DNA of 64,000 nt from Patescibacteria group bacterium. GTDB lineage: Bacteria; Patescibacteriota; Patescibacteriia; SG8-24; DYFX01. Shown here piece by piece: positions 2,152-25,666 of the stretch. Under the pieces are notes generated by a model, which saw nothing but the letters and a program-made list of their open reading frames with translations, did no database searches and was not told where the DNA came from. Position 1 is the first letter of the stretch. Each line of letters begins with the position of its first letter. Position numbers and translations under genes: made by a program. The stretch covers positions 309,453 to 373,452 of the forward strand of contig CP129476.1 in the NCBI GenBank assembly GCA_030583805.1. The letters are read 5' to 3'.

Positions 2152-2490
2152 TCAATCCAACGCCCAAGGACTTTTCTTGGGCGCGTACAGCCAGAAGAGG
2201 TCGTCGCCTTCGACGGCAATCTCGATTTTTTCGAGTTCGGAACCTTCGGGCGCTCCCCCGGCGTCAGGTACGGCCACGCCCGTTTTGCAGTCGAACTGAC
2301 CGCCATGCCAATCGCACTCGAGGACGTCGCCGGTACAGCGAAGTTTGCCGCCCATGTGGGTGCAGAAGTTGACGTAGCCGCGCAGGCCGTCGCCGGTATT
2401 CACGACGATCAGGTCCTTTCCCATCGCGCGATAGCTTTTCGCGCGGCCGGCCGCGATCTCCGAAACTTTTCCGAGCGGAATCTTTTCCAT
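2152..2490 (-). CDS. Rieske [2Fe-2S] domain protein (small ferredoxin-like)
   Basis: CTHMGGKL...CDWHGGQFD gives the CXH...CXXH Rieske cluster ligands. 112 aa. Confidence 0.8.
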   Translation of the reverse strand: MEKIPLGKVSEIAAGRAKSYRAMGKDLIVVNTGDGLRGYVNFCTHMGGKLRCTGDVLECDWHGGQFDCKTGVAVPDAGGAPEGSELEKIEIAVEGDDLFWLYAPKKSPWALD

Positions 2491-2491
2491 C

Positions 2492-4174
2492 CTAGCGGAT
2501 CACGCCTCCCCATTCGACGACGGTGAAGCCGTCGCGCACTGGGGTTTGAATGTCGAAGCCTTGAACCGGGATCGGTTTTTCAAGCGGCAAGAAGTCCATG
2601 AGCACGCGGATGACCGTATCGGGCTTAGGCGAAATTTCAAGCGGTGCGAGCGCGTCCATCGTGCGGTTGCCCATGAAGGTCACGAAGTACCACGGCGAGC
2701 CCGACATGCGCGGCTCCCAGAATTCAATGAAGTCGGCGCGCTCTTGCGTATTCAATCCGAGCGCGGAAAGTTTTTCGACCAGGAAGGCATGCACGTCTTT
2801 CTGCGCCACGACGAAGCCTTGCTTCGGCGTCTCGTACAAGCCGCCGCGTCCCTCCCAGAAAAGATACGGGTACGCTTTGCCGTCCTTCAGGTTCGTGAGC
2901 TCCCCTTTCGGCGTCGCGCGCACGTTCCAACCGCCGTCGTAGGCCGGTTCGGTCACCGTGAACCCGCCTTGCGGGTACAGCTTCACGCTGACGTCGGTCG
3001 TCTCTTCGGGGTAGAGATAGATGACAGGCTTTCCGCATTCAACCGCCGGCAAGAAGGCGGCTTTCTGGAATTTCGCGAGACGGCCGAAGGGATCGCGCCA
3101 GAAAAACAGCGGCTGTGCCTTCACGAAGTCTTCGTAAGACATCTTGTCGTCGCCGCGGCCCATCGCATAGCTGTTCTCGTAGGTATCTTTCAGCAGCGCG
3201 TGATCGGCATTCTTGAGCGCATAGACGCTCTCCCCCTGCGAGGTCTTTCCCACGGCGACGAGATCGCCCTGCGCGACGCCCTGGACGACGGAGAGGAAGT
3301 TGGACGCGCCGCAGCCTCCGACGTCGGTTGCCCAATATTCTTCCGTATTTTTCAGGCCGTCCGCCCAGGTCACGTCGGGAACATGCACGTCTTCGTCATA
3401 GAACGGGACGTCGAGCGCGTAGGCGCGAACGGTTCCGTCCGGAGCAACCGCGTAAAAACCATGTTGCGGACGAGCGACCGCTTCCGTATCCGTGTACATC
3501 GTACCGAGCGTCTCGTGGACGAATGCGATCTTTCTATCTCTCGAGTCGAAAAGAGGCGCGTCTTTCTGCGGATCCTGCTGGCCGAAAAGCGACAGCCGCT
3601 GGATGCGCATGGTCGCTCCATTCTGTTCAATCGTCGTCGGGAAGATAAGTTCCGGAATGACGTTCGTGTCGTCAATCACGAATTTTTCGGCATCAAAACG
3701 GACCGGACCGTACTCGTTCGGCTCCGAATCGATAAACGGAGAATGGTTGGCGAGAAGCACGGGCTTGCCCGACTTCGGGAGCAGCGCGTGATACGTCGTA
3801 TAATCCCCCATGTTCATCGCCGTCACGGTCACGATCACGACCATCGCGCCGGCATACGGCTCCGACACGACCGTGCCCACGCGATGCAGCTTGTCCTGCG
3901 GTGGGAAGTCGGTCATGCGCTGGCGTTCGATCATTTCCTTGTACGCTTCGGAGAAGAGATCGGGGCTCGTCATTTCTTTCGGAGCCGACCACTTCACGGC
4001 CAGCACTGCCGTCGCGCTTTCCGTCGGCGCCGAAGGCTGCTCAACGGGCGTTTGCACCGGCGTTTCTGGCGTCACGACGGCACCATCGGGCTGCCGCACG
4101 AAGGCTGCGTATGCCACCACGATCAACGACGCCGCGCCGACGACGAGCAGGATCCGAAAATAGTGCTTATTCAT
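2492..4174 (-). CDS. Hypothetical membrane-anchored/secreted protein (560 aa)
   Basis: Start reassigned to ATG at 4172-4174 (MNKHYFRILLVVGAASLIVVAYAAF is a signal anchor). The track ORF starts upstream at TTG. Pro/Thr-rich linker, then a large domain with no motif I recognise. Confidence 0.6.
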   Translation of the reverse strand: MNKHYFRILLVVGAASLIVVAYAAFVRQPDGAVVTPETPVQTPVEQPSAPTESATAVLAVKWSAPKEMTSPDLFSEAYKEMIERQRMTDFPPQDKLHRVGTVVSEPYAGAMVVIVTVTAMNMGDYTTYHALLPKSGKPVLLANHSPFIDSEPNEYGPVRFDAEKFVIDDTNVIPELIFPTTIEQNGATMRIQRLSLFGQQDPQKDAPLFDSRDRKIAFVHETLGTMYTDTEAVARPQHGFYAVAPDGTVRAYALDVPFYDEDVHVPDVTWADGLKNTEEYWATDVGGCGASNFLSVVQGVAQGDLVAVGKTSQGESVYALKNADHALLKDTYENSYAMGRGDDKMSYEDFVKAQPLFFWRDPFGRLAKFQKAAFLPAVECGKPVIYLYPEETTDVSVKLYPQGGFTVTEPAYDGGWNVRATPKGELTNLKDGKAYPYLFWEGRGGLYETPKQGFVVAQKDVHAFLVEKLSALGLNTQERADFIEFWEPRMSGSPWYFVTFMGNRTMDALAPLEISPKPDTVIRVLMDFLPLEKPIPVQGFDIQTPVRDGFTVVEWGGVIR

Positions 4175-5984
4175 ACGTCTGTTTGAGTGTAAAAATTCCG
4201 GACGCGATCGCTGCTTTGACGTCTTCGGAGACGTAGGAATCCTCCGCGAGGGTTCGCAGCAACATACCGCGTTTTTCAAAGGACATCAAGGAGGGTTGGA
4301 CGGCCCGAATCTCAATCGGCATGAGGTGAAAGACCGTTTCTTTTTCATCGGCAGCGATGCCGACCGCGAGCCCCTGGCTGGTCTCCGCGCTGAACGATTG
4401 GTCAAAAATGAAATTGCCCAGCGAGTAAAAGATCGCCTTTCCTTTATAGACCTCGATCGGCTGGATGACGTGCGGGTGCGCGCCGAGCACGACGTCGGCG
4501 CCTGCGTCGATGAACGCGTGCGCGATATTTTTCTGCGCTTGCGTGGGAAAGCGCTCGTACTCCACGCCCCAGTGCGGATAGACGACGATGAACGCGCCTT
4601 GCCGCTTCGCATCGACGATCGCTTTCGCGATTTCTTCCATGTCCCGTCCGCCGAACTGGTGGTAGCCGATTTGAACGACCGCGCGGCCCCGCACGTCGGT
4701 CGTCGCCATCACCCCGTCGCGATTCGAAGGGTCGCCGAACGGCACCAGGCCGGCTTGGCGCGTGAGCTCGCGCGCGCCTTCGAGCGCGGAGGTGCCGAAA
4801 TTCAGCGCGTGGTTATTCGCGTAGCCGAGGTGCGTAAACCCCGCGCGTTTCAACGTCGAAAGCAGCCACGGTTCGAACGGAAAGCGCAAATCGTCCGGCG
4901 CGCGCGGTTTTTGCTCTTCCGGCACGTCAATGAACACGCCTTCGGCATTGGCCGTCACGAGATCGCTTCCTTTGAACAGCCTGGGCATGCCGGCAAACAG
5001 GTGATTCGGTTCTTTGCCCTGCAGCAACGCCTCGACACCGCGCGCAAGCATCATGTCGCCGAAGGCGAGCAGCGTGATCGTTGCGTCCTTTTCCTTCTTT
5101 CCGCCTTTGTAGGAACCGACGAGATAACTCGTGACGTCAGGTTGGCCGGGGTGTTCCGTCAGTTCCGCGGAGTTCGATTGCGCGAACAGCGAAAACCGCC
5201 GCGCGCCGACGCTGTCCATGAAACGCATGACGAGACGCAGCCCTTGCCTCGAATCGATATCGACCGCGCGGGCGCCCTCGTCATCCAGCGCCCGCAGAAC
5301 GGCCAAGCTTTTACGGTCGTGGAAGCGCGCGGCCGTATCGGTCAGCTCATGCGTGAAATCGAACGATCCGACGACAAGCACGCGCGACCCGAAAATCTCG
5401 CGCATCTCCCGCACGACGCGCTCGATCTCCGCATCCGTCGCCGTCTCTTTGACGATCAGCGGCACGATGCGCGCATTCGGCATCGATTTCTTGATGAACG
5501 GCACGATGCCGGAAATCCCGTGTTCGCGCGTGAAGGGTTCTTCCTCGATCGCGGCGGCGCCGACTCGCGCCAAACGTTCAACAGCGTCGCAATCGCTTTC
5601 CAGCTGACCGTACGGCGTGCGCCAGGAGGACGGCGTCGTGAGAATCGGCGCTTGACCCGCCATGAAATGATTCGGGCTCACGAGCACGACGGTCTTCGGA
5701 CGTTCCGTCTCGACGGCTTCGAACGCCTCGGCAATCAAGGAAGCCGCCAGGAGGTGATGCGGCACGATCAATCCCTTGATGTTGGCGTCAGATGCGCGCG
5801 GCTCGGCGCTTTGATACGCCTTGTCGAACGTATCCGGCGTGCTGAAGTAGGAATACTGCAGCGACTCGGGACAAACCTTGGCGATCTCGCGCTCTTCGAT
5901 CCTGCGCGTCCAAACGAAAAAAGCGCCAAACAGCGCTGCAACAAAGAGCGTCCCGACGACGATGTTATGAGCGATCCTTCGCAT
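4167..5984 (-). CDS. Fusion protein: N-terminal MEMO1/AmmeMemoRadiSam-B-like domain plus C-terminal CapA/PGA_cap metallophosphoesterase-like domain
   Basis: N-terminal TM anchor. GLIVPHHLLAAS and SFDFTHELT resemble the Memo-family PHAGY/DFSHYG motifs. C-terminal FGDMMLARGV, ANNHALNFG, YPHWGVEY and GAHPHVIQPIEVYKGKAIFYSLGNFIFDQ are the PGA_cap/CapA signatures. Confidence 0.75.
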   Translation of the reverse strand: MRRIAHNIVVGTLFVAALFGAFFVWTRRIEEREIAKVCPESLQYSYFSTPDTFDKAYQSAEPRASDANIKGLIVPHHLLAASLIAEAFEAVETERPKTVVLVSPNHFMAGQAPILTTPSSWRTPYGQLESDCDAVERLARVGAAAIEEEPFTREHGISGIVPFIKKSMPNARIVPLIVKETATDAEIERVVREMREIFGSRVLVVGSFDFTHELTDTAARFHDRKSLAVLRALDDEGARAVDIDSRQGLRLVMRFMDSVGARRFSLFAQSNSAELTEHPGQPDVTSYLVGSYKGGKKEKDATITLLAFGDMMLARGVEALLQGKEPNHLFAGMPRLFKGSDLVTANAEGVFIDVPEEQKPRAPDDLRFPFEPWLLSTLKRAGFTHLGYANNHALNFGTSALEGARELTRQAGLVPFGDPSNRDGVMATTDVRGRAVVQIGYHQFGGRDMEEIAKAIVDAKRQGAFIVVYPHWGVEYERFPTQAQKNIAHAFIDAGADVVLGAHPHVIQPIEVYKGKAIFYSLGNFIFDQSFSAETSQGLAVGIAADEKETVFHLMPIEIRAVQPSLMSFEKRGMLLRTLAEDSYVSEDVKAAIASGIFTLKQTYE

Positions 5985-6690
5985 GCACGTCTTTGGCGTG
6001 TCCGAAGGTGTAGGCGAAACGGTCGTCGCGGATCTGGCTGCGCATCAAAAGATGCAGCTCGGCCAAGAGATATTTGCCGAAAATGGAAAAACGGCCGTCG
6101 CGCTCGAAGCGGCGCACCGACACGCGGATGCGCGTGCCGTGCAGCACGCGGAACGTGCCGATCCTGCGCGCGCGTTCGACATAGTCGTGATCTTCCGCCA
6201 ACTTGATCGATTCGTCGAAACCCTTGATGCGTTCGTGCAGGCGCTTGCGCGCGAAAATGCAAAAGCCGGGAGCGTGCGCCAGCATGAATTGCGTCGCCAT
6301 CATGTGCGCGTTGAAGACGTTGTGGGAAACGTGGTCGATCAACTTTCCGTCCATCGGCTTCACGAGACACGTCGCCGCGTCGAGCTCGCGCCGCGTGAAC
6401 TGTTCCATTTTTCCGGCGAGCCAATCGACGTCGGGCAACACGACGTCGGCATCGAGGAACAAGAGCACGTCGCCCTTCGCCGCTTCGGCGCCGCGATTGC
6501 GTCCCGGTCCCGGCATACCGCCGTCGACGACCCGCGCGCCGAACTGCAGCGCGATCTCGCGCGTCCGGTCGCTTGAGTGCGCGTCCGCAACAACAATCTC
6601 ATACCCGTCAAAGTTCTGGCTTCGAATGGAAGCCAGGAGCCTCGGCAGATACCCTTCCTCGTTGTAGGTCGGAATGATGATGCTTAGCAT
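5965..6690 (-). CDS. Glycosyltransferase family 2
   Basis: MLSIIIPTYNEEGYLPRLLASI...VVADAHSSDRT...LFLDADV are GT2 motifs. ATG at 6688-6690. Overlaps the downstream gene start by 20 nt. Confidence 0.85.
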   Translation of the reverse strand: MLSIIIPTYNEEGYLPRLLASIRSQNFDGYEIVVADAHSSDRTREIALQFGARVVDGGMPGPGRNRGAEAAKGDVLLFLDADVVLPDVDWLAGKMEQFTRRELDAATCLVKPMDGKLIDHVSHNVFNAHMMATQFMLAHAPGFCIFARKRLHERIKGFDESIKLAEDHDYVERARRIGTFRVLHGTRIRVSVRRFERDGRFSIFGKYLLAELHLLMRSQIRDDRFAYTFGHAKDVHAKDRS

Positions 6691-6917
6691 ATGTGGTTTT
6701 TTAGCTCTTTTGAGCCAAAAAACCGTATCAATGGCTATGGTAGCATACTTTGGCACTTAAAGGAAGGGGCGCGGGAAGCACGCGATCTCGACCACTCTCG
6801 CTGACACCACGACATAACAAGGGCGCCGCGCCGCTGACGAAACATCGCTCCTGTGGAAAAGCCGCGTCGTACGAGCCTGCCGCGCGAAACGCCGGAGTCT
6901 GCTATCATAGAGGCACT

Positions 6918-8072
6918 ATGCGCCGCTTCGTTCTTGCTTTCACGCTCAGTCTCACCCTACTCTCCGCCGCTCCCGCCTTTGCCGCCGAAGGCTCCAAGCC
7001 TTTTTTCTCGGAGATCGGTAGGCACTTTCTCACGGGCGCGCGCTTTTACGGCAACACCATCAGCAACCTCTCATGGAAGCTCATGGTGCGTTTGGGGTTC
7101 GACCGGTTTTTTTCGACCACGGGCGAGGGCGGCCTCTGCGACCAGAGCACGCGCTGCGCGGAAGGGCTCGTATGCCTGAACACCTGCAAGGAAGCCTCGT
7201 GCGCCCGCTTTGAAAAGCACTGCGTGATCGGACCGGCGTCGGTGCCGGTCGTCGGTGCATCTTCCATTTGCGGCGCGGAAAACTTGTGCGTCGACGGCAC
7301 GGAATGCCTCCGCGTCTGTCCGGTCGGCGCGACGTGCAGCGCCTCGCATCGCTGCGTCGCGATCCGACGACCGGGGCTCGCCTGCTCGGATGATCTCGAC
7401 TGTAAAGCTTCGTGCGGCGCTCTCTCCGCCCCTGAAATCGGCCCGGGCGCCTACGCAGCGCGCTGCGATCAAGGAAGTTGCGCTTGCGACCCCGTCGAAA
7501 TTACGCCCAACGCTGAACGCATGGCCTGCGGAACATCGACCGTGCTGCTCGGCTGCCCGACAAGCACGTTCCAAGCCTGCGCAAGAGGCGAGAACGGCCA
7601 GCCGTACGCCACCTGCCTCACCTCCCCCGAGTACGGCGGCATGTGTTTTGAAGACGCGGAATGCTCCGCCGCTGCTTGTCCGGAAGGCGCGACGCCGTTC
7701 TGCGACGAAAGCCGCGCCTGCAAATGCCGCGCCACGGAAACGAACGTTATCGCCTGCTCCAACAACGACGAATGCAGCGCGTCGATCTGCGCGCAAAACG
7801 AAATCGCGGCTTGCGTTTCCGGCGCGTGCGCCTGCGCGCCCGCCGGAGTCACCTCGGCCTGCACCACGACCTCCGACTGCTCGACAGAGTGCCCGTCGGG
7901 ATTCGAAGCCGCTTGCGAACAATCGACCTGCGTCTGCCAGCGCACGCAAGAAAACGTCCCCGTCGCCTGCCAAACGGTAGCAGACTGCGGAGCGGTCACG
8001 TGCTTGGGTGACTTTCAAAAAACCTGCCTGGATAACGTCTGCGCCTGCACGCGAACGACTGCGCCCCGCTGA
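6918..8072 (+). CDS. Secreted cysteine-rich repeat protein (hypothetical)
   Basis: Signal peptide MRRFVLAFTLSLTLLSAAPAFAAEG. About 5 tandem ~30-aa modules of the form Cx4-5(D/E)Cx3-4Cx5-9Cx5CxC, each ending in CAC, CKC or CVC. Confidence 0.65.
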   Translation: MRRFVLAFTLSLTLLSAAPAFAAEGSKPFFSEIGRHFLTGARFYGNTISNLSWKLMVRLGFDRFFSTTGEGGLCDQSTRCAEGLVCLNTCKEASCARFEKHCVIGPASVPVVGASSICGAENLCVDGTECLRVCPVGATCSASHRCVAIRRPGLACSDDLDCKASCGALSAPEIGPGAYAARCDQGSCACDPVEITPNAERMACGTSTVLLGCPTSTFQACARGENGQPYATCLTSPEYGGMCFEDAECSAAACPEGATPFCDESRACKCRATETNVIACSNNDECSASICAQNEIAACVSGACACAPAGVTSACTTTSDCSTECPSGFEAACEQSTCVCQRTQENVPVACQTVADCGAVTCLGDFQKTCLDNVCACTRTTAPR

Positions 8073-8110
8073 TTGACGAACGATCCGAAACGCGGTAGCG
8101 TTGGGCGGAT

Positions 8111-9421
8111 ATGAAGTACGGCGAGAAGATCACCTTGCGCGTCGAAGCGTTCGACGAACGCGGCCGCGGCATCGGACCATCCGAAGCCAAAAAAACGGCC
8201 GCGTCTTTTGTCATTCCAGGCGAAACGGTTGAAGGCATCTTCGTCGGACGGAAACAGGGCGTCGCCAAGATGGGAGATATCAACGTCCTGCAGCCGTCCC
8301 CCGACCGCGTGGCGGTCGAGTGCCCGCATGCCGGCGTCTGCGGCGGCTGCGCCTGGCAGCACGTGCGGTACGAGCGGCAGGCCGAGGAGAAGCGCTCCAT
8401 GGTCGCCGAGGCGCTTGCTCCAGTCGGCGTCACCGTTTCGGACTACATCCAAGCCGAAGAGAAATTCCGTCATCGCAACCGGATGGACTTCGTGTTCGGG
8501 CCGCACGGCGAACTCGGACTGAAAGAACCCGGTCGATGGGACAAGCATCTGAACCTCACGACCTGTCTCATGCTTTCCCCCGAAGCAACCGACGTGCTGA
8601 ACACGGTCCGCGCCTGGGTCCTGACCACGTCGCACAAGCCGTGGGACAACCGCAGTCACAAGGGCTTCCTGCGTTACGTCGTGATTCGCGAAGGCAAGTT
8701 TACGAACGAGCGCCTGGTCACGCTCGTGACGGCGGAGGGCGAGCTTGAAAAAAAAGAAGAACTCGTCGCCGCCTTGTCGCCGCTCTGCACTTCGCTCGTG
8801 CACGGCATCAATCCCCTGCTGACCGACCTTTCGATCGCCACGGAACTGCGTCCTCTTAAAGGAGAGGCTTTACTTCGAGAAAAGATCGGCGACATCACGT
8901 ACCGCATCCACCCGAACGCGTTTTTCCAAACCAACAGCCGCATGGCCGGCCGCCTCCTGGAACGCGTACGCGCGCTTGTCCTGGCCGGACCGCATGACCG
9001 CTTGCTCGACCTGTACTGCGGCGGCGGCTTCTTCTCGCTCGCATTGGCCAAAGACGTCACCTCCGCGCTCGGCATCGAACTCGACGCGCAGGCCATCGCG
9101 CAGGCGGAGGCGACAGCCGAGGAAAACGGCGTGCGGAACGTCACGTATCGCGCCGAAGCGGCCGAGCAGCTTTCCTGGGAAACGGAAAAGCCCGACGTCA
9201 TCATCGTCGACCCGCCCAGGAGCGGCTTGCATCCGAAGGTGAAAAAGCTGCTGCTGGAGAAAAAGCCGCCGCGCATCGTCTACGTCTCCTGCAACTACCG
9301 CACGCTCGCCATGGACCTGAAAGACCTGCTCGCGGCCTACCGCGCGGAACCGGCAACCTGCGTCGACCTCTTCCCGCATACGCCGCACATCGAAACAGTG
9401 GTACACTTAACCTTGCTATGA
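8111..9421 (+). CDS. rlmD: 23S rRNA (uracil-C5)-methyltransferase RlmD/RumA family (TRAM + Fe-S + SAM MTase)
   Basis: TRAM-like N-terminus, the CPHAGVCGGCAWQH cluster, LLDLYCGGGFFSLALA (motif I) and DPPRSGL. Confidence 0.85.
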   Translation: MKYGEKITLRVEAFDERGRGIGPSEAKKTAASFVIPGETVEGIFVGRKQGVAKMGDINVLQPSPDRVAVECPHAGVCGGCAWQHVRYERQAEEKRSMVAEALAPVGVTVSDYIQAEEKFRHRNRMDFVFGPHGELGLKEPGRWDKHLNLTTCLMLSPEATDVLNTVRAWVLTTSHKPWDNRSHKGFLRYVVIREGKFTNERLVTLVTAEGELEKKEELVAALSPLCTSLVHGINPLLTDLSIATELRPLKGEALLREKIGDITYRIHPNAFFQTNSRMAGRLLERVRALVLAGPHDRLLDLYCGGGFFSLALAKDVTSALGIELDAQAIAQAEATAEENGVRNVTYRAEAAEQLSWETEKPDVIIVDPPRSGLHPKVKKLLLEKKPPRIVYVSCNYRTLAMDLKDLLAAYRAEPATCVDLFPHTPHIETVVHLTLL

Positions 9422-10278
9422 AAGTCGGATTCGTCGCCCTTGTTGGGCGCTCCAACACCGGAAAATCGACGCTCGTGAACGCGCTCGTCGGCACCAAAGT
9501 CGCCATCACGACGCCGAAACCGCAAACCACGCGCCAAGCCATCCAAGGCGTCCATCACGGCGAGGAGGGCCAGATTATTTTTGTCGATACGCCCGGCATC
9601 TTCAGGAAGAAGCGCGACAAGGTTACGGCCCGCATGAACCAGGCCGCCAAAGGCGCGCTTGAAGGCGTCGACCTCATCTTGAACGTCGTCGATCCGACAC
9701 GCGCGATCGGCGAAGAGGAAGAGGACATTTTGCGCCTTTTGAAAGACGTCGAAGCGCCGAAGGTGCTCGTCATCAACAAAATCGACGAGCCGCGGCCGCG
9801 CTATCTCGAAGACTACCGCGCGCTCTCTACCGACTTCGCGCAGACCGTCGAAATTTCGGCGCTCAAGGGAACGCACATCAAAGCGCTCCTTACGGCCGTC
9901 TACGCGCGCTTGCCGGAGGGCGAACCGATTTACCCCGAACACCAGATCACGAACATCGACAACAAGACGTGGTACGCCGAACTGATCCGCGAAAAGGTCT
10001 TCTTGTCGCTCTATCAGGAAATCCCGTACACCACGACCGTCGAAGTCGACGAGATCGAGCGCCGTCCGTCGAAAAACAACAAGGAGATGCTCTACGTGAA
10101 AGCGCGCATCCTGACCGACGACGACCGCCACAAGCGCATGATCATCGGCGCGGGCGGCATGATGATCCGCAAGATCGGCACCATGGTGCGCAAAGAGCTG
10201 GAACAGATCCACGGCAATCCGGTCTATTTGGAGCTCGAAGTCGAAACCGACCCGCATTGGCCCGAGCGTCTCCAGTAG
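9418..10278 (+). CDS. era: GTPase Era
   Basis: GRSNTGKSTLVNALVG (G1), DTPG (G3), NKID (G4) and a KH domain C-terminus. ATGA overlap with rlmD. Confidence 0.95.
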   Translation: MKVGFVALVGRSNTGKSTLVNALVGTKVAITTPKPQTTRQAIQGVHHGEEGQIIFVDTPGIFRKKRDKVTARMNQAAKGALEGVDLILNVVDPTRAIGEEEEDILRLLKDVEAPKVLVINKIDEPRPRYLEDYRALSTDFAQTVEISALKGTHIKALLTAVYARLPEGEPIYPEHQITNIDNKTWYAELIREKVFLSLYQEIPYTTTVEVDEIERRPSKNNKEMLYVKARILTDDDRHKRMIIGAGGMMIRKIGTMVRKELEQIHGNPVYLELEVETDPHWPERLQ

Positions 10279-10294: not shown

Positions 10295-10999
10295 ATGGAG
10301 GAAAAAATCTCAGACGAATTCGGCTGGCGCATCTTCCGCATCATGGCGGAATTTGTCGACGGCTTTCAATTGATCCGCGGACTGAACAAGACCGTATCGT
10401 TTTTCGGCTCGGCACGCTTCGGCGAGGACGACCACCACTATGAAGAGGCGCGCGAACTGGCGCAGAAGCTCGGGAAATCCGGTTATACGATCGTGACCGG
10501 CGGCGGCCCCGGCATCATGGAGGCCGGCAACCGCGGCGCCATGGAAGTCAAAGCCAACTCCGTCGGTTTGAACATCGAGCTGCCGCAGGAGCAGAGCCTG
10601 AATCCGTACACCACGCGCTCGCAAGGCTTCCACTACTTTTTCACCAGAAAGGTGATGCTCTCGTATGCGGCGCAGGCCTACGTCTTCTTTCCGGGCGGAT
10701 TCGGCACGCTGAACGAGCTGACCGAGCTGCTCATGCTCGTGCAGACGAAAAAGATCGATCCGCTTCCGATCGTCCTCGTCGGCAAGGATTTCTGGCGTCC
10801 GTTCATGAAATGGATCGAAGAGCACGTCTACGAAAACCACAAGGCGATCGACAAGGCGGACATGAACATCTACCACCTCGCCCAAAACGTCGAGGAAGCG
10901 TATCAGGTCATCACGAGCGTCGATACATGCCCGCCGAACGCGGCAAAATGCTGGTACGGCTACCAGCCGCACCAAGTCAGGGGCGCGAAATCGAAGTAA
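10295..10999 (+). CDS. LOG family protein (TIGR00730; cytokinin riboside 5'-monophosphate phosphoribohydrolase-like)
   Basis: GGGPGIMEA and PGGFGTLNEL hallmark motifs. Confidence 0.9.
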   Translation: MEEKISDEFGWRIFRIMAEFVDGFQLIRGLNKTVSFFGSARFGEDDHHYEEARELAQKLGKSGYTIVTGGGPGIMEAGNRGAMEVKANSVGLNIELPQEQSLNPYTTRSQGFHYFFTRKVMLSYAAQAYVFFPGGFGTLNELTELLMLVQTKKIDPLPIVLVGKDFWRPFMKWIEEHVYENHKAIDKADMNIYHLAQNVEEAYQVITSVDTCPPNAAKCWYGYQPHQVRGAKSK

Positions 11000-13664: not shown

Positions 13665-16600
13665 GTGGTGGCCAAGCCTATTAAGAGGAAAATATACGCG
13701 GCCAATCTGACCACCCTCATGGGGTTTGGCCTATTCGGCATCCTTTCGGCCGAAGCCTACTATGTTGGATCTTCCACGGCCTCCAAGCTTGTGGGTGATT
13801 TCCACAGAGGTGATTACGGATATTGGCTGGCGACCATCTGCACGGGCTACCTGCTGTATGTCGTCGCCTATTTCATCTTGAGAGGCGGTCCGGCTGCTGC
13901 TGCGAAACTGCTTAAGAGCAGGCGCGCGGATGTCGTTGGTGTCTTCGTGGCCGGAGCACTGATGAGTATCTCGTTCGGCGGATTCGGCAGTCCCCTCTAT
14001 CAGAAATTGGCATATACACTCACCGTCTATCAAATACTCACGCTCGCCCTGCTGCCATTTGCGCTGGGACTTTTGATCTTGCTCCGAGCATTGCAGCGTG
14101 GTCCGGATCGAGAGGGCTTGCCGCCGTTTTTCATCAGCGACGTTGAGCAGAAAAACAAGACTGGCGACCTACTTGACCTTGCGGATGAGGCAGATCGGTT
14201 TGCAGAGCGCGTCTGGAACAACGGCTCAATAGAAAGCATGGTGTTCGGCATTGACGCGCCATGGGGCATCGGAAAGTCATCATTCGTAAATTTTTGCAGG
14301 GAGTCATGGGAAGGAAAACACAGAGGACGGGTCATCCTCTATAATTTCAATCCCCTAAGGTATGAAGATCGGGCGAATCTCCTTGAGAAGTTCGTCGACG
14401 GCCTTGTTCGCGTCGTACAAAAACACGCTTTTGTCCCAGAGATTAGGCCACTGGTTTCAAAATATTCTCGCTTCATCAAAAGCGCCAAAGCGTCATTCAG
14501 TTTTTTGGGGGTTGATTTCGAATTGGCACCCGGCACATATACGGTCGATGATGCCTTCGCAGATCTTGAATCAGCCCTGACCGACATCGACAGAAAAATT
14601 GTCATCGTCATCGACGATCTCGACAGGTTGGATTTCTCGGCGATTAAGGACGTCCTCTCTGTGATTAAGAAGAGTTTTAACCTGCCCAATGTTTCCTACG
14701 TCCTCTGCTACGACACTGAGAATATCAATGTGCTGGAAAGGGAACGGCCTGATGTTGAGAAAGTGACGGAGTTCCTTGAGAAATTCGTCAACGTCAAGGT
14801 GGGCCTGTACCTCGACAGCGAGACGCTCGCTAAATACGTCTCCACCAATCTCGCCAGGGCCCTAGTGGGTAACTCTCAGGCCGATCCGAAGCTGGTTTCG
14901 GCGGCGGTTGGTGGTCTCATCGACATCTATAAGTCTCCCGAATTCCACCGCTACCTGCCCTTCATCGGCGATGTTAGAAAAATCAAGAGGTTCATCAATA
15001 CACTCCTGCTTCTTGAAATCGAAAAGGCTGATTTCAAGAATAGTGATTTCGACAAGCAGGACTTGGTTCATCTGCTGTTGATCTATATTAATTATCCGAG
15101 CATCTTCCGGAAGATTTATAACGCCGAGACGAATGGGCGCCGGGGGTTCTTTTCGGTCGCCATGCCCCTCGATGATAACTACCCGAAGGATCCGAGTGCG
15201 GCGCGATCAGGACTAGAAAACACCTACAAAAACTCTACGGATTACGAGGCCTATGTGAAAAAACTTACCGATAACCAGAAATTCCTGCTCGGCAAGATTT
15301 TTGACGTTCCTCTAAGGTTGAAGGACGCGAGAATTGACGGCGTCCCTCAAGAAGCCAAGCATGTGTACGCTTGTTTCAATGGGGGCGTGTTCGGCGGCGG
15401 CCAAAATCTTGAGGCCTACCTCAATTTGATCGTCAAACTTTCCAAGCCCCAAAAGAGTGGCCAGTACAAGTTTTACGCAAATCTCAAGGACGAGATCCGC
15501 GACGGAAAGAAGTCCATCGATGATGTACTGTCAACATCCGATTTTTCGTATGATTGCCCAGAGAGCAACCGCGAACAGCTGTGGAAAGTCATCATCAACA
15601 GCCTGTCGGAATTCAAGAGTGTGGTGGGTAGCAAGCTGATCGTTCACCTGCTAGGGAATATGCAGAACTATTCCCTCTTCACAAATCAGGTGATTGGCGT
15701 CGGTTTGCGAGACGACCTAGATATTTTCCTGACGAGGCTGCTCGATCAGGTGGGTTGGAAGGATCAGAAAGGCGAGCACACCGACAACACCCCAGAAAAC
15801 ATTTCTGAAATTGCCGAATGGGTCTTTGGCGAAGGGCGGCACGCTGGTCAATCGGTTCTTTTGACACTCGCCAAAGAAGACCGCGGCACCCTCGGCCTCT
15901 ATGATCTGCTTTGCTTCCGCCTCTTTTGCAGCGCCGATCGAGGGGGTGATATCTTCAATCTTTCTCGTGCACTCTCAAAGCATGGCGACCCCAACGCACC
16001 GACAGATGGTTCAATAAGGGAGATTGCTATCGGGGAAATGCGTGAAATATCGCAAGCTGTCTTCGGTATTTTCAAGTCTCAATACATCGATCCCGGAAAA
16101 AACATTTTTGATTTAATCGATGGGCTCTCTTTGGCTGATTTTGCCGGAAAATACCAAGCATACATCGAAGGAAAGGTTACATCTGGAGAGATCGAAAATG
16201 CTGAAACTACGGTTGCCGATCTTAAGTCACGCATGAAGTCATTCATCACCTACCAACTGACCAATACCTACATCAGTAGCGGCGTCGGCTGCGGTTACTA
16301 CGACCCGTCAGGCAAAGAGGACGCTGGAGGAATCAGCCACAGCGTCAATGACTACCTTTTCGGTACGTGTTTTAACCCCAGCGTCGCCGGGAAAAATTAT
16401 GAACACTTCTTGGACTACTTGCTCATAAATTTTGCCAGCACCTTTGAATCAAGGGGTGGTCGTGAATACACCCCACATATCAATGAATTCACAAAAATCC
16501 TCGACAAGTCAAAGCTCGCAGAGTACTGGCGCGAACACGCCACCACGATCAGGGGTCTGAACCTAACTGAGAAGGAAAAGACAGTGATCACCTCAAATTA

Positions 16601-16700
16601 TTCTGCTTCGTACAAAGACGATCTGGCGGGCGTGTTTCAGGTGCTGGACAAGCTCATCGAAGAACCTGTAGTCGAGGCACCTGTCGCGCCTAGCGCTTAG
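13665..16700 (+). CDS. KAP family P-loop NTPase with four N-terminal transmembrane helices
   Basis: GTG start. Four hydrophobic helices in the first ~140 aa. FGIDAPWGIGKSSFVNF (KAP Walker A GxWGxGKS) and VIVIDDLDRL (Walker B). Confidence 0.8.
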   Translation: MVAKPIKRKIYAANLTTLMGFGLFGILSAEAYYVGSSTASKLVGDFHRGDYGYWLATICTGYLLYVVAYFILRGGPAAAAKLLKSRRADVVGVFVAGALMSISFGGFGSPLYQKLAYTLTVYQILTLALLPFALGLLILLRALQRGPDREGLPPFFISDVEQKNKTGDLLDLADEADRFAERVWNNGSIESMVFGIDAPWGIGKSSFVNFCRESWEGKHRGRVILYNFNPLRYEDRANLLEKFVDGLVRVVQKHAFVPEIRPLVSKYSRFIKSAKASFSFLGVDFELAPGTYTVDDAFADLESALTDIDRKIVIVIDDLDRLDFSAIKDVLSVIKKSFNLPNVSYVLCYDTENINVLERERPDVEKVTEFLEKFVNVKVGLYLDSETLAKYVSTNLARALVGNSQADPKLVSAAVGGLIDIYKSPEFHRYLPFIGDVRKIKRFINTLLLLEIEKADFKNSDFDKQDLVHLLLIYINYPSIFRKIYNAETNGRRGFFSVAMPLDDNYPKDPSAARSGLENTYKNSTDYEAYVKKLTDNQKFLLGKIFDVPLRLKDARIDGVPQEAKHVYACFNGGVFGGGQNLEAYLNLIVKLSKPQKSGQYKFYANLKDEIRDGKKSIDDVLSTSDFSYDCPESNREQLWKVIINSLSEFKSVVGSKLIVHLLGNMQNYSLFTNQVIGVGLRDDLDIFLTRLLDQVGWKDQKGEHTDNTPENISEIAEWVFGEGRHAGQSVLLTLAKEDRGTLGLYDLLCFRLFCSADRGGDIFNLSRALSKHGDPNAPTDGSIREIAIGEMREISQAVFGIFKSQYIDPGKNIFDLIDGLSLADFAGKYQAYIEGKVTSGEIENAETTVADLKSRMKSFITYQLTNTYISSGVGCGYYDPSGKEDAGGISHSVNDYLFGTCFNPSVAGKNYEHFLDYLLINFASTFESRGGREYTPHINEFTKILDKSKLAEYWREHATTIRGLNLTEKEKTVITSNYSASYKDDLAGVFQVLDKLIEEPVVEAPVAPSA

Positions 16701-17985
16701 CCACACTTAGATGTTGGTCTGCTAGAACAATGCTAGTTTTTACACAGAGGAGAAGCTCACGCTTTTCCTCTTTTGTTCCGTTGATTAGGACGTGGCGGAG
16801 GTACTTCTTGTGATCCAGCCGAGGCATTTTTGTGCTCGCCTCTGCACCGAGCATGGATGCCATGAAACGCTGATTCCGCTCAAGCTCGTCCTGGAATTTC
16901 TTTTTTGAAACCGCGTGGTCGATCTCCAGCTCGTCGAGGATGCCGACGAGCTGTTCAATGAGCACCTCCTCGCGAACGTACGGTTCCTTGCAGTCTTTGT
17001 CGGTGGTCCGCCCACAGTGATAGTAGACGTAGCGCTGGCGCGTGCCGTCGCGTAAGCTCTTGAACTTCTCCTGCGCTGTGACGCCGGAGCCGCACGCGCC
17101 GCACTTCATGAGGCGGGTGAAGGCAAACTCTTTCGACCCCCACTTGGTCTTTTTCTTTTCCATCGCCAGCTGCCTCTGCACGTCGTTGAACAATTCCTCC
17201 GTGACGATGGACTCGTGGGCCACCGGGAACCAGTTTCCGCTTCCGCATGGATACTCGAACCTGCCGTAGTAATAGGGGTTCCGGAGCATGAGGTAAATCA
17301 TGCTTAGCGGCAGTTTCTTGCCCTTCCGCGTTTTGAACCCGACCTCGTCGAGCCATACCTTGATCTTCCTGCCGCTGTGACCGAGGTTCGAGACGCGCTC
17401 GAACATCTCCTTGATGATTGGCGCACGTTCGGGATCGAGGAGAACCTTCTGCTCGCCCTTCATCGTTGTCTTGGTGTTGAAGTACCCGAGCGGCGACTGG
17501 TTCGGCCTCCAGCCCTGCTGCACCTTGGCACGTTGCCCCCGTTTCACGTTGACACCACGGTTGTCATTCTCGAGTTTTGCCTGACTGCACAGGATCATCA
17601 GCAGGAACTTCTCGTTCGGCGAGTTGGTGAAGTGCTGGCTCGGTGTTCGGATCTCGACGAGCTTCCCTTGATCCATGAGGTCGACGAGTGCCCCCAGGTC
17701 GCCGCCGTTGCGGCTGAGTCGGTCCGGTGCCCACGTCAGGATGCCGTTGAATGTCCCGGCGCGCACATCCGTGATCAGGCGGTTGTATTCCGGACGCTGG
17801 TTCGAGTCCTTCGCGGAGTGGCTCTCGCGCCGCGTCGCCACGACCTCCAGCTTCTCACGCTCGGCGAGCTCGAGCATCTCCTTGATCTGCGCGTCGATCG
17901 ACAGCGCCTGCCGCTCGTCCTGCTCGCTCGACTTCCGGGCGTACAGGCAGTACCGAACAGGTACGGCTTCAGTTGGCTTGTTCAT
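16690..17985 (-). CDS. Large serine recombinase (resolvase/invertase N-domain + recombinase domain + zinc ribbon)
   Basis: YCLYARKSSEQDERQALSIDAQ is the catalytic Ser region. CGACGSG in the C-terminal zinc-ribbon region. 431 aa. Confidence 0.85.
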   Translation of the reverse strand: MNKPTEAVPVRYCLYARKSSEQDERQALSIDAQIKEMLELAEREKLEVVATRRESHSAKDSNQRPEYNRLITDVRAGTFNGILTWAPDRLSRNGGDLGALVDLMDQGKLVEIRTPSQHFTNSPNEKFLLMILCSQAKLENDNRGVNVKRGQRAKVQQGWRPNQSPLGYFNTKTTMKGEQKVLLDPERAPIIKEMFERVSNLGHSGRKIKVWLDEVGFKTRKGKKLPLSMIYLMLRNPYYYGRFEYPCGSGNWFPVAHESIVTEELFNDVQRQLAMEKKKTKWGSKEFAFTRLMKCGACGSGVTAQEKFKSLRDGTRQRYVYYHCGRTTDKDCKEPYVREEVLIEQLVGILDELEIDHAVSKKKFQDELERNQRFMASMLGAEASTKMPRLDHKKYLRHVLINGTKEEKRELLLCVKTSIVLADQHLSVAKR

Positions 17986-18064
17986 AGCCCTTATTTGCCC
18001 TTACAGCCCCTTAATAGAAGGCATGTAGGACATCAATGCCGCACCCCGACCGTGAAGGCTAGGC

Positions 18065-18175
18065 TGGCCTTAAAAGCTCTTTAAAGCCATATGACACCGA
18101 CGAATCTCCGAACATCCCTGGCAATCCTGATGACAAGCATGGGGAAGGCATCCGCGAGATAGCTCGGCTATGCGA
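18065..18175 (-). pseudogene. Truncated 3' fragment of a second terminase large-subunit (terL) copy
   Basis: Reverse translation gives ...LADAFPMLVIRIARDVRRFVGVIWL*, matching the C-terminus of the intact TerL (...LADAFSMLVIRVAKDVRRFVGIIWL*). About 80% nt identity to 19360-19470. Confidence 0.7.
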
Positions 18176-18304
18176 ACCATCGAGACGAGGTCGGGATGAC
18201 ATTTTTGTCCCATAACGCACCATCATCGGATATTTGACGAGGATTAATCCACATGTTAGTCTTGCACCGGCTCACAACAACCACCCGAGCCATTGGAGGC
18301 AGAA

Positions 18305-18775
18305 ATGAAGCGCATCGTTCTTTTGACGGCGGTTCTCGCATACGGCGTGTTGACCTCGGGCTGTGTCGTGGATGACGACGGCGAGGACCTAGGGGTCACG
18401 GAGCAGGAGGTTACGGTCAACGACACACTGCCCACATCTGGGAGTAAGACGGTCAGCGTAGCCGTCTATCCTGGTGCACCCTCAGACATTATCATGAGTT
18501 CTCCGTCTTCCGGCAACTGGAAGTTCGAGACGTACGGCAGCCCAATCAGTCTGGGTGGTTGCTCGGCCGGCGACTTCATCGTCTACACCTACTGGCGAGA
18601 CACAAGCGTCAGCTCGACGTGGAACTACTGGCCAGGAGGCGGGCCGGTCTGTTACCCGACATCCGGGTGGTCGACGAACCTGTACAGCGGGAGCAGCACC
18701 ATTCAGTACAAGTTCGAGTACTACGCGTACGGCGGTTATGGCGAAACCGTTTACGCGAAGTTCACGAAGCAATAG
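18305..18775 (+). CDS. Hypothetical lipoprotein (Trp/Tyr/Ser-rich)
   Basis: GGAGG SD 5 nt upstream of the ATG. Signal peptide with lipobox LTSGC. Confidence 0.6.
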   Translation: MKRIVLLTAVLAYGVLTSGCVVDDDGEDLGVTEQEVTVNDTLPTSGSKTVSVAVYPGAPSDIIMSSPSSGNWKFETYGSPISLGGCSAGDFIVYTYWRDTSVSSTWNYWPGGGPVCYPTSGWSTNLYSGSSTIQYKFEYYAYGGYGETVYAKFTKQ

Positions 18776-18816
18776 TCGAGGGCTCGTACGTCGTGCTAGT
18801 ATGTGAATACAGCACG

Positions 18817-19287
18817 ATGTTTTTAAACCCAAACCATATGTCCATGCCCAAGCGTGTCCGGGAACTACTTTCCACAGCGTCCTTGTTGTTTTTTGTGTGG
18901 CTTTCCGCATTTAGTGGCGATTTCATTGCCGCGCGCACATTCCAAATGAATGATGCCTCCATCCGCAATCCTTGGTGGTCAGTAATCGTAATAGGGTTGC
19001 TCCAACTGATGTTCATGTACGTCGGAGCGCAAGCCATACTGCATATTCTTAAACCCGGCCGCGTCAATAAAAAGCTAGGATTACTTACAGCCCTAATCGC
19101 GTGGCTTTCACTAGAAAAAGTTCTCGCGTTTCCTCGATTGCTTGCGACTCTGCTTCCCAACGGGATTATCGGTACAAACACCGCTCTTTCTACGGTTATC
19201 GTAATTGCAGCACAACTTTCGGTGACGTATCTGCTGGTGTTGATTATCTCGCGCTTGTTGCTTACGGGAGAGGGTGATAGCAAGTGA
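18817..19287 (+). CDS. Hypothetical integral membrane protein (~4 TM)
   Basis: MFLNPNHMSMPKRV... start inside the longer track ORF. Multiple hydrophobic helices. Confidence 0.5.
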   Translation: MFLNPNHMSMPKRVRELLSTASLLFFVWLSAFSGDFIAARTFQMNDASIRNPWWSVIVIGLLQLMFMYVGAQAILHILKPGRVNKKLGLLTALIAWLSLEKVLAFPRLLATLLPNGIIGTNTALSTVIVIAAQLSVTYLLVLIISRLLLTGEGDSK

Positions 19288-19369
19288 CGATTGGGAGCAT
19301 ATAGTTACCGGGAGTAGCTAATGCCTTTCTGCTTGTGACTGTCTGGCTTGTGCCGCCCTTAAAAACCCC

Positions 19370-20860
19370 TTAAAGCCAGATGATACCGACGAATCGCCGA
19401 ACGTCCTTGGCAACCCTGATGACGAGCATCGAAAAGGCGTCCGCAAGATCGTCGTGTCGCTCCGCGCCGAAGCCGACGAGCTGGCGGATCAGGTCATCGC
19501 ATCCGGTCTTCGGAAAGTAGATGTTGCCGAGTTCCATCTCTCGCGCCGCCAGCGTTAGTCGCGCCCGCTTGTCCATGCCCTCTGGACTCACGCCGTAGGT
19601 CGTGAGGTTCGCGTGCTTCATAGTCTCGATCGCCGCGCGTTGAAAGGCGACGTCCTCGACGTAGAAGCGGTGGTACTTCCGATCCGTCATCGTCTTGGTG
19701 AGCTTGGCGGCCTGGATGATCCCTTCGAACGTGAGGTGCTTGTTCGTTACGAACGGCAGGATGTAAACGCGATAGTCCTCACAGAAACCCTGTCGGTCGG
19801 ATTTCTTGTACACGGCAGCGGTGACCATCGCGGTGTAGTCAGCCGACTCGCGCTGTGAAATCGCGAGATCTATACCAGTCGCCACAAACTCGAAGTGCCA
19901 CCCCGGTTCAAGAATGTTCGGCGGCTCGTCCGGAAGGCCCGCGTATCGCTTAATCCATTCCGGCTGCACGACCTGATCTCGGTCGGGCACGATCTCCTGC
20001 ATATACTCCCTGCGAAAGGCCCACTGGTCACCGATCTTTCGCTTGAGATCCTCGATGTGCTCCATCGTCGGGAACTTGGCCGGCCACGCGGGACACCCGT
20101 CTATGACGATCGGGTACTGGCGATAAATGCCGGTCAGTTCCTTTTTCTCAATCTCGTCCTTGAGACGGGCGACAAGCGATTCCTCGTGGAGGAGGTTGCC
20201 GACGATGAAGATGTTGCAGGAGTCGCCGCCCGCCGGGATGACTTCCGATTTCAGCCATCGATATCGCTTCTCACGGATCTCGCTCGAACGAACTGAATCG
20301 AGGTCCTCGACGTCGTCGATAATGATCAGGTCGGGGCGGTTGGAGTGGTTCTTGAGTCCTCGGAGTGAGCTGTCCGCCGAAAGCGCGACAATCCTCGCCT
20401 TGTATCGCGGTAGGACAAGCGAGTTCTCGTTCCAAATATCACCCACGTTGAACGGGCCGTAGTCATTGATGAGGCGGGCGTTCGTTTCCAGCTCAGACTT
20501 TATGTTGTAGAGGATCTGTTTGGCCTGCGGCTCGGTCTTGCTGATGATCAGGATGAACTTCTTGCGTCCCGTCACCGCCGCCCAGATGGGATACGAAAGC
20601 GAGGCGATCGTGGACTTGCCCGAGTTCCTGAAGGCGACCACGACACGGAGCGGGTCTGCACATGACTCCGTCAGCCGGAAGATCTCTTTATGAAAGAGGG
20701 CGAACGGCACCGTCATGTGCTCGCCGAGATACGTCATGAAGAACCACAGATGACTTTCCGTGGTGAGACCGATCCGAAAGGCGCGCTCCTTCTCGATACG
20801 CGAGAAGGTTTCCTCAAGAGATCCGTTTTGAGGTTGAATTCTTTCCTGCATCGCCGTCAT
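19370..20860 (-). CDS. terL: Phage terminase large subunit (TerL; ATPase + RNaseH-like nuclease)
   Basis: AFRNSGKST (Walker A), LIIIDDVED (Walker B), ATGIDLAISQRESADYTAMV in the nuclease domain. Start taken at MTAMQERIQ, overlapping the terS 3' end. Confidence 0.85.
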   Translation of the reverse strand: MTAMQERIQPQNGSLEETFSRIEKERAFRIGLTTESHLWFFMTYLGEHMTVPFALFHKEIFRLTESCADPLRVVVAFRNSGKSTIASLSYPIWAAVTGRKKFILIISKTEPQAKQILYNIKSELETNARLINDYGPFNVGDIWNENSLVLPRYKARIVALSADSSLRGLKNHSNRPDLIIIDDVEDLDSVRSSEIREKRYRWLKSEVIPAGGDSCNIFIVGNLLHEESLVARLKDEIEKKELTGIYRQYPIVIDGCPAWPAKFPTMEHIEDLKRKIGDQWAFRREYMQEIVPDRDQVVQPEWIKRYAGLPDEPPNILEPGWHFEFVATGIDLAISQRESADYTAMVTAAVYKKSDRQGFCEDYRVYILPFVTNKHLTFEGIIQAAKLTKTMTDRKYHRFYVEDVAFQRAAIETMKHANLTTYGVSPEGMDKRARLTLAAREMELGNIYFPKTGCDDLIRQLVGFGAERHDDLADAFSMLVIRVAKDVRRFVGIIWL

Positions 20861-25662: not shown

Positions 25663-25666
25663 TGAT

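Follow-up and report, generated by a model that had tools for sequence, protein, structure and literature searches.

A secreted Patescibacteria protein of eight tandem cysteine modules with resemblance to nodule-specific cysteine-rich peptides and scorpion toxins

A bacterial gene for a protein in which 46 of 384 residues (12%) are cysteines raises the question of how so many cysteines are organized, which known folds they resemble and what the product may do outside the cell. We analyzed such a gene at positions 6918-8072 (+ strand, stop codon included) of a 64,000-nucleotide stretch of DNA from a Patescibacteria group bacterium (assembly GCA_030583805.1, contig CP129476.1, positions 309,453 to 373,452). 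This whole stretch is called the window, and coordinates refer to it unless another locus is named. The original prediction for the gene described a secreted protein with about 68 cysteines in about five tandem modules, an architecture thought to be rare in bacteria and to resemble eukaryotic EB, antistasin or Dickkopf folds. We counted 46 cysteines instead of 68 and found that they group into eight modules (M1-M8), two of one class (A) and six of another (B), one of the latter being degenerate. The class B modules resembled cysteine-rich peptides specific to nodules (NCR peptides) and scorpion toxins, and the character of small, tandem, disulfide-type modules akin to those of eukaryotes was upheld in that form.

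Anatomy and conservation of the protein

The open reading frame (ORF) begins with an ATG at 6918, and its stop codon ends at 8072. The 384-aa translation was identical over its full length (100%) to NCBI QY323_01695 ('MAG: hypothetical protein', Patescibacteria group bacterium, where MAG stands for metagenome-assembled genome), which lies on a 1.17-Mb contig. A longer reading is possible from a TTG at 6750. We preferred the ATG because AGAGG, a possible ribosome-binding site read from the sequence (6909-6913, + strand), lies 4 nt upstream of it, because most homologues begin at the same MR(R), and because the NCBI match is full length. No sigma-70-like promoter was found in 6600-8200. That the ORF might be spurious, given the high GC content of the genome, was ruled out by the orthologues, by a proportion of nonsynonymous differences (pN) well below that of synonymous ones (pS) and by the NCBI annotation.

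At the N-terminus, the sequence MRR, FVLAFTLSLTLLSAAP and AFA|AEG combines a basic n-region with a hydrophobic core (Eisenberg mean 0.6-0.67), and an A-x-A motif marks the cleavage site. By inspection and hydrophobicity, residues 1-22 (MRRFVLAFTLSLTLLSAAPAFA, 6918-6983, cut before AEG) make up a predicted cleavable Sec-type signal peptide, in which P19 and A22 are near-invariant among homologues; the claim that the protein is secreted was therefore borne out by these features. Tat export was ruled out since the second Arg of the 'RR' varies among homologues. The mature protein starts with a cysteine-free part (aa 23-69, 6984-7124) in which F37, G40 and A41 are conserved. Its hydrophobic moment of 0.52-0.57, at a mean hydrophobicity of ~0.1, marks the segment as strongly amphipathic and points to a helix at about aa 25-52; AlphaFold2 (AF2) placed a helix at aa 30-58 with low confidence.

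The two class A modules were delimited by their spacing (5,5,3,4-5,5-6), by AF2 and by hhalign. M1 (aa 74-102, 7137-7223), predicted to be all-beta, reads C-x5-C-x5-C-x3-C-x4-C-x6-C, and M2 (aa 118-146, 7269-7355) reads C-x5-C-x5-C-x3-C-x5-C-x5-C. The canonical class B modules (M3 and M5-M8) follow C-x5-C-x3-4-C-x7-C-x4-5-C-x-C, with 16 residues in place of x7 in M3. In M3 (aa 156-190, 7383-7487; spacing, AF2 and hhalign) a CxxxC lies in a predicted helix and the module ends in CAC; the AF2 model has a helix at 159-167 and strands at 177-184 and 187-194, at a predicted local distance difference test score (pLDDT) of ~90. M4 (aa 204-233, 7527-7616), recognized by hhalign, is the degenerate member, with four cysteines and the second one missing, and it retains a CP-x6-C core. 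We rejected a clean loss of the C2-C5 pair as its origin, as the alignment shows a complex rewiring in which an extra pair partly aligns with C5. The remaining modules, assigned by spacing and hhalign, are M5 (aa 243-270, 7644-7727, CKC end), M6 (aa 280-306, 7755-7835, CAC end, spacing 5,4,7,4,1), M7 (aa 315-340, 7860-7937, CxxxC, CVC end) and M8 (aa 351-377, 7968-8048, CAC end), the most conserved of all. CxxxC and CxC occur together in M3 (C162-KAS-C166, C188-A-C190) and in M7 (C321-STE-C325, C338-V-C340). All of these features lie on the + strand.

The modules were compared with one another profile to profile by hhalign, using for each the orthologous columns that it occupies in an alignment of 39 family members. 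M1 and M2 matched with a probability of 95.5% (E 1.5e-8). Most pairs among M3 and M5-M8 had probabilities of 87-98% and E values of 1e-6 to 1e-13, with M3-M7 at 96% (E 2.9e-9) and M3-M5 and M3-M8 weaker, while M4 reached 81% with M8 and 75% with M6. hhalign did not detect a relation between the classes, the probability being at most 10% for all pairs except M2-M5 (56%, a partial overlap of 26 columns). The predicted periodicity thus held on self-alignment. The five modules ending in CAC, CKC, CAC, CVC and CAC, with D/E before the second cysteine, are real. When the cysteine-rich part was shuffled 20,000 times with its composition preserved, no shuffle gave five class B matches. The predicted count was incomplete, missing M1, M2 and the four-cysteine M4, and the exact spacing first proposed, with five residues between Cys4 and Cys5, fits M5 only. 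Neither the class A nor the class B pattern occurred elsewhere in a six-frame translation of the window. Tandem Repeats Finder reported only a 13-bp micro-repeat and no tandem repeat at the DNA level, which rules out a recent tandem duplication and indicates that the duplication of the modules is old. In the AF2 model of the whole protein, beta-strands extend through the short, conserved linkers between modules; the pLDDT was 80-92 over aa 70-270 and 55-72 for M6-M8.

A word-indexed search of 5.8 billion proteins returned 26 clusters (90% identity), all of 340-423 aa, with full-length coverage and 39-100% identity. An exhaustive phmmer search of 1.84 billion 50%-identity representatives returned 21 matches, ~15 of them with the same full-length architecture; our view of the wider distribution of class B modules is based on this single run. 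The architecture is therefore as rare as predicted, and it is restricted to one lineage. The ~40 full-length orthologues (37-82% identity) came from loci titled Patescibacteria group, Minisyncoccota or Candidatus Paceibacter, all of them Patescibacteria/Paceibacteria-type MAGs. Several third-party annotation (TPA) MAGs with family loci are titled 'uncultured Gammaproteobacteria', yet their synteny is of the type seen in the Candidate Phyla Radiation (CPR).

All 46 cysteines were kept in every full-length homologue but one. The exception, P0019, is without one pair, C90 and C95 (Cys4 and Cys5 of M1), which are missing together. An additional pair in M4 was present in 20 of 39 homologues and absent from 19, and never occurred as a single cysteine. 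Such paired gain and loss is the behavior expected of disulfide partners, and the 46 cysteines would form 23 disulfides. Q341 and R379, outside the cysteine framework, were also near-invariant. Comparison with orthologues gave a pN far below pS, indicating that the gene is probably under purifying selection; dS was saturated at ~1.3, which makes the dN/dS values themselves unreliable. With an amino acid identity of 41-67%, as against 56-93% for the cytoplasmic neighbors TrmA-like, Era and LOG, the protein diverged as fast as these or faster, at a level similar to that of other envelope proteins of the locus.

Resemblance of the modules to known cysteine frameworks

A profile of the family's 94 class B modules was searched against the PDB. 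The best match was chickpea NCR13 (7th8/8ulm; E 8e-4) with all six cysteines aligned, followed by the scorpion peptides 1pvz (E 0.1) and 2lix, and a profile of M3 alone gave 31 weak matches, mostly to scorpion alpha-KTx toxins with the CS-alpha-beta fold (alpha-beta, stabilized by cysteines). When the 94 modules were scanned one by one against Pfam, Nodulin_late was matched by 63 (best E 1.3e-4), EB by 15 (best E 0.032), Toxin_2 by 14 (best E 0.006) and Antistasin by three (best E 0.02), and Gamma-thionin reached E 0.35 at best, all below the respective gathering scores. In the window protein, Nodulin_late was matched by M6 (E 0.0033, 18.2 bits) and M7 (E 0.007, 17.1 bits) against a cut-off of 30.4 bits, and Toxin_2 by M7 at E 0.24. 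Class B fails every curated membership threshold. With the whole protein as the query, Nodulin_late (PF07127) gave no match at E<=10, Pfam returned EB only (E 1.3; 9.6 bits, where the cut-off is 24.3), antistasin and Dickkopf being absent from the matches, and searches of Pfam, NCBIfam and PDB sequences offered nothing usable beyond that EB match and spurious matches to fructose dehydrogenase. Searching Pfam for the repeat, as the original prediction had proposed, thus produced weak Nodulin_late and Toxin_2 echoes and no family at threshold.

The structure of NCR13 as determined by nuclear magnetic resonance (NMR) has cysteines at 4, 10, 15, 23, 28 and 30, a helix at Q5-C10 and strands at V20-I24 and F27-V31, with disulfides C4-C23, C10-C28 and C15-C30 in its compact isomer (PMC11637438). 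The spacing of M6 and M8 (5,4,7,4,1) is exactly that of NCR13. M8, modeled as a single module by AF2 from the module alignment, had a pLDDT of 89.8, a helix at 6-11 and strands at 19-23 and 26-30, and these predicted elements coincide with the NMR elements of NCR13 with an offset of one residue. A Foldseek search of the PDB with this 31-residue model was led by the scorpion toxin BmP02 (TM-score 0.51/0.53, root-mean-square deviation 2.5 Å), at a non-significant E of 2.4, as is to be expected of so small a model. For the disulfide pairing of class B, the analogy with NCR13_PFV1 and the paired gain and loss of cysteines give indirect hints. Together, framework and predicted topology suggest that class B is NCR-like and similar to the cis-defensin/CS-alpha-beta type.

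Class A was predicted by AF2 to be all-beta with three short strands. M1 (5,5,3,4,6) fits the knottin consensus C-x3-7-C-x3-6-C-x0-5-C-x1-4-C-x4-13-C, and M2 (5,5,3,5,5) is one residue over in loop 4. Dickkopf_N was matched once, by a class A module, at E 0.27. Ferredoxin matches had raised the possibility that the class A 'C...C...CP' motif binds a 4Fe-4S cluster. We discarded it because the cysteines are not spaced as in CxxCxxCxxxCP and because export goes through Sec. Pacifastin inhibitors have a six-cysteine spacing of C-x9-12-C-x2-C-x-C-...-C-x4-C; neither module class has it, and Pacifastin_I gave no match at E<=10 in the whole-protein or module scans.

Genomic neighborhood and possible roles

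The cysteine-rich gene lies between a minus-strand block of envelope-biogenesis genes and a plus-strand housekeeping run. The block comprises genes for a GT2 protein (5965-6756), a Memo+PGA_cap fusion (4167-5984), a 595-aa protein without assigned function and an AT3-SGNH acyltransferase (69-2306). The run consists of a trmA-like gene (8111-9421), which starts 39 bp downstream of the cysteine-rich gene, era (9418-10278) and a LOG-like gene (10295-10999). This order was conserved in all related loci. We compared the window's intergenic region (6757-6917) with the loci L002, L004, L006-L011 and L013-L019. In 13 of 14 distinct related loci, including that of the most divergent relative (Era identity 63%), a gene for a small Trypsin_2 protease lies divergently ~90-170 bp upstream of the cysteine-rich gene, and it is usually followed by a gene for a GSDH-type dehydrogenase (12 of 14 distinct loci). 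L012 is without the protease only, and L019 and the partial L010 show no dehydrogenase. In L019 the protease was apparently called on the wrong strand by the gene caller. The protease was the fastest-evolving gene of the neighborhood (33-45% identity) and carried a lipoprotein-type signal peptide in all three cases inspected. Its link to the cysteine-rich protein is suggestive and not obligatory, and much of the synteny reflects the close relatedness of the genomes. Not far from the locus, relatives also encode (L002, 4228-4866, - strand) a protein of 212 aa that combines an N-terminal signal with a Pro-rich region, a transmembrane segment and DnaJ-type CxxCxGxG zinc-finger-like repeats; the Rieske protein encoded beside it shares 86% identity with window 2155-2487.

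A family of MdbA-like thiol-disulfide oxidoreductases is enriched in CPR bacteria and is often encoded adjacent to VKOR (Méheust et al., PMC6744442), and formation of disulfides outside the cytoplasm is therefore plausible, by analogy, for the window genome as well. Two adjoining predicted membrane-type ORFs at 62684-63946 (- strand; 236 aa with five cysteines and 169 aa with four) had no Pfam match and were not recognizable as VKOR or Dsb.

We propose that the protein is a Sec-exported, oxidatively folded and protease-resistant string of eight mini-domains that serves as an extracellular multivalent binding scaffold, a reading that we hold with evenly divided confidence. Sec would export the unfolded chain and the signal peptide would be removed. 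Outside the membrane, an MdbA-like oxidoreductase/VKOR system of the kind common in CPR bacteria would oxidize the cysteines, each class B module would form a short helix packed on a beta-hairpin, and the result would be a rod-like, protease-resistant 'beads-on-a-string' protein whose linkers are short and conserved. At the N-terminus, the amphipathic helix may retain or orient the protein at the cell surface (membrane or wall), the ligand most probably being on the cell envelope or on a host surface. A functional tie is possible to the trypsin-like lipoprotein protease, an extracellular enzyme whose gene lies divergently alongside in most relatives.

Several observations weigh against this picture. 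The NCR and toxin matches are sub-threshold or weak and owe most of their signal to the cysteine framework, so that convergence may account for them. Three of the five canonical class B modules (M5, M6 and M8) carry Cx4C in place of CxxxC, and in the M8 model only the second cysteine is in the helix at 6-11, the third lying outside it. The mature protein is acidic, with a net charge of -14 (-2 to -30 across the family), unlike cationic defensins. Class A modules had no consistent Pfam echo, and the joint loss of Cys4 and Cys5 from M1 in P0019 does not match the classical knottin pairing (C1-C4, C2-C5, C3-C6). A Foldseek search of the PDB with the full model was led by the double-knot toxins DkTx (E 0.05) and Hi1a (E 1.0), neither significant; the remaining matches were set aside as Fab or cadherin noise. 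The protein has no anchor motif, neither an LPXTG nor a C-terminal transmembrane segment. A check for DsbA, thioredoxin and VKOR families, also suggested at the outset, was run on part of the window and found none among the screened candidate membrane and secreted ORFs. Lastly, both the protease and the dehydrogenase are missing from the window genome, where tblastn was negative and the GT2 gene abuts the cysteine-rich gene.

The functions first suggested, an adhesin, a protease inhibitor or a host-interaction factor, may each apply, and the one contextual clue is the trypsin-like protease gene that neighbors the locus in relatives. This clue points to a different role, that of a multi-headed protease inhibitor or regulator in which canonical loops of the disulfide-locked modules block or tune the bacterium's own Trypsin_2 lipoprotein or host proteases. 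This is the mode of action of tandem inhibitors of the Kazal, pacifastin, antistasin and potato-II types. The divergent protease gene in 13 of 14 loci, the most divergent relative included, fits this role, and so do weak echoes of the scorpion CS-alpha-beta trypsin inhibitor TopI1 (E 0.27) and of the Squash and Antistasin families; tandem arrays consisting only of small disulfide-rich modules are moreover typical of protease inhibitors (PMC9885460). We nevertheless consider it rather unlikely: the cysteine-rich gene persists intact, with all its cysteines, in the window genome and in one relative although both have lost the protease, variability is evenly spread with M8 highly conserved and no hypervariable reactive-site loop visible, no inhibitor family reached its threshold, and the synteny is largely due to close genome relatedness. 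The same protease could instead act as a processing enzyme on a polyprotein precursor, cutting the linkers, for example after a conserved Arg, and freeing NCR-like modules against a host bacterium or competitors. Life on a host is assumed for CPR bacteria, the framework and predicted topology of class B equal those of NCR13, an Arg follows the last cysteine in M5 (CKCR), M7 (CVCQR) and M8 (CACTR), Q341 and R379 are near-invariant, and most relatives have a gene for a trypsin-like protease next door. We regard a precursor as improbable, given that the modules are neutral to acidic throughout the family, unlike membrane-active cationic defensins, that the short conserved linkers are predicted to continue beta-strands and so suggest a rigid, intact rod, that dibasic or repeated processing motifs were not seen, and that the protease is missing from the window genome. 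Legume NCR peptides act on rhizobia. A bolder idea, which we rate as a long shot, is a 'polydefensin' of an episymbiotic CPR bacterium, with an NCR/CS-alpha-beta scaffold, independently invented or ancestral, used as a tandem array that either binds the host surface multivalently or is cut into NCR-like peptides by the adjacent trypsin-like lipoprotein protease, in order to manipulate or attach to the host bacterium. If true, the kind of tool that legumes use on rhizobia would here be used by bacterium against bacterium, cis-defensin-like domains would extend to CPR and to multi-domain proteins, and the case would bear on the prokaryotic roots of eukaryotic defensins.

Two further readings concern the nature of the modules themselves. 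The originally predicted likeness to EB, antistasin or Dickkopf folds of eukaryote type, whether taken over from eukaryotes or common to both groups, finds an echo in the sub-threshold EB and Antistasin matches (15 and 3 of 94 modules) and in the E of 1.3 for EB on the whole protein. All of these scores are far below gathering, Nodulin_late and Toxin_2 (63 and 14 of 94) are together much commoner, NCR13 and scorpion toxins lead the PDB matches, the predicted helix and hairpin differ from the topology of EB or antistasin, and Dickkopf_N appeared a single time and in class A; we therefore judge this origin very improbable. Hardly credible, in our estimate, is a metallothionein-like protein that binds metals or buffers thiols outside the cell through reduced cysteines. 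The cysteine content of 12%, the CxC motifs and the likeness of the relatives to anaerobic fermenters (pyruvate:ferredoxin oxidoreductase and acetate kinase nearby) would suit it, but cysteines are gained and lost in pairs, secondary structure is predicted with high confidence in each module, His and CxxC are not enriched, the protein has a Sec signal peptide, and CPR bacteria encode extracytoplasmic disulfide-forming enzymes.

The window holds further features away from this locus. A lower-GC island at 13665-33000 (0.48-0.54 against ~0.60) contains genes for a KAP P-loop NTPase (13665-16700, +), two large serine recombinases (16690-17985 and 28645-30009, both -), a terminase-like protein (19370-20932, -), two N6/N4 DNA methylases (21307-22638, -; 23941-25662, +), a ResIII helicase/restriction subunit (25667-27994, +), ParB_N (30023-30898, -) and an XRE helix-turn-helix regulator (31100-31450, +). 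The island has the appearance of an integrated mobile element, or of what is left of a prophage, that carries a restriction-modification system. An 817-aa VirD4/TraG-like type IV secretion coupling ATPase with TrwB_AAD_bind and TraG-D_C domains is encoded at 38739-41192 (-). At 45069-48461 (-), adjoining a dnaJ-dnaK-hsp20-grpE-hrcA cluster, lies a gene for a 1130-aa secreted Gly/Ser/Thr-rich protein with a coiled coil and a C-terminal Peptidase_S74 intramolecular-chaperone domain (E 5e-14). This combination is a hallmark of trimeric fibers of the phage tail-fiber or endosialidase type, and the protein may be a surface fiber of the CPR cell.

Comparison with known systems

NCR13 and Nodulin_late peptides share with M6 and M8 the pattern C-x5-C-x4-C-x7-C-x4-C-x-C, a short helix after Cys1 and a hairpin bearing Cys4-Cys6, and both are secreted. 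NCR peptides are, however, single peptides of 30-50 residues from IRLC (inverted repeat-lacking clade) legumes, many of them strongly cationic (NCR13, +8), whereas the Patescibacteria protein fuses six NCR-like modules with two others in one acidic bacterial protein of 36 kDa. It is not a nodule-expressed single legume peptide but a 384-aa multi-module protein with bacterial neighbors on a 1.17-Mb Patescibacteria contig. The window modules score 17-18 bits against a gathering cut-off of 30.4, and the likeness to NCR peptides may be convergent; if it is merely a convergent cysteine framework, the protein would be an uncharacterized, lineage-specific secreted repeat protein.

The cis-defensin/CS-alpha-beta peptides (BmKX 1PVZ, BmP02 1DU9, alpha-KTx) share C...CxxxC...C...CxC with M3 and M7 and the hairpin turn motif C-x-[NDS]-G-x-C-x-C with our modules, for which a helix and a two-stranded sheet are predicted. 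They differ from M5, M6 and M8, which carry Cx4C, and the matches are statistically weak. Known bacterial cis-defensins, such as the actifensins and those of myxobacteria, are single-domain peptides of Proteobacteria (including the delta class/myxobacteria), Actinobacteria and Acidobacteria (PMC11561630); unlike the protein described here, they are not multi-module, and none has been reported from Patescibacteria. A 2026 study described pacifastin-like domains in CPR MAGs from genomes with a GC content of 35-49.5% (PMC13388995). Their cysteine spacing differs from that of our modules, and the GC content here is ~60%.

Among the 1.84 billion representatives, the only multi-module class B match outside the family was P0042 (GCA_030052785.1), a fungal lytic polysaccharide monooxygenase of auxiliary activity family 11 (AA11), with E 4e-7 for aa 161-379 against P0042 216-440. 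Its gene (L001, 5001-7031) is intron-containing and eukaryotic, and after the AA11 domain, which matches PDB 9exj/4mah (E 1e-25), come a Ser/Thr/Pro linker, four class B-like cysteine modules and a C-terminal domain of no known type. The modules of P0042 are thus appended to a catalytic domain, whereas the bacterial protein has none. The match shows that the class B module type is used elsewhere as a putative extracellular add-on.

The architecture itself is shared with secreted cysteine-rich repeat proteins (SCREPs) such as DkTx and Hi1a, in which, as here, a signal peptide is followed only by tandem disulfide-rich domains with short linkers. SCREPs are a recognized architecture, and most prokaryotic ones have unrecognized domains (ScrepYard, PMC9885460). 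The Patescibacteria protein has a signal peptide, eight modules in two homologous classes, 12% Cys, probable disulfides and no other Pfam or NCBIfam domain. It differs in having eight modules of two classes in place of the usual two identical ones and a cysteine density that is high for a prokaryotic SCREP, and the Foldseek match to DkTx (E 0.05) is not significant. We found no description of the family in the literature searched. We interpret the protein as a SCREP architecture built of modules that appear to be defensin/NCR-like, in a phylum and a multi-module form not previously described. If this structural reading is true, it would be the first multi-module defensin/NCR-like disulfide-rich family described in Patescibacteria and would add a data point on prokaryotic origin versus convergence of the CS-alpha-beta/NCR scaffolds. 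It would also mean that CPR cells, which are ultra-small and mostly anaerobic, spend resources on an extracellular protein with 23 disulfides, which implies efficient oxidative folding outside the cytoplasm. The protein would then be a compact, conserved and lineage-specific surface or secreted candidate for the poorly understood interface between CPR bacteria and their hosts, and its hyperstable tandem mini-domains would be of interest as engineering scaffolds.

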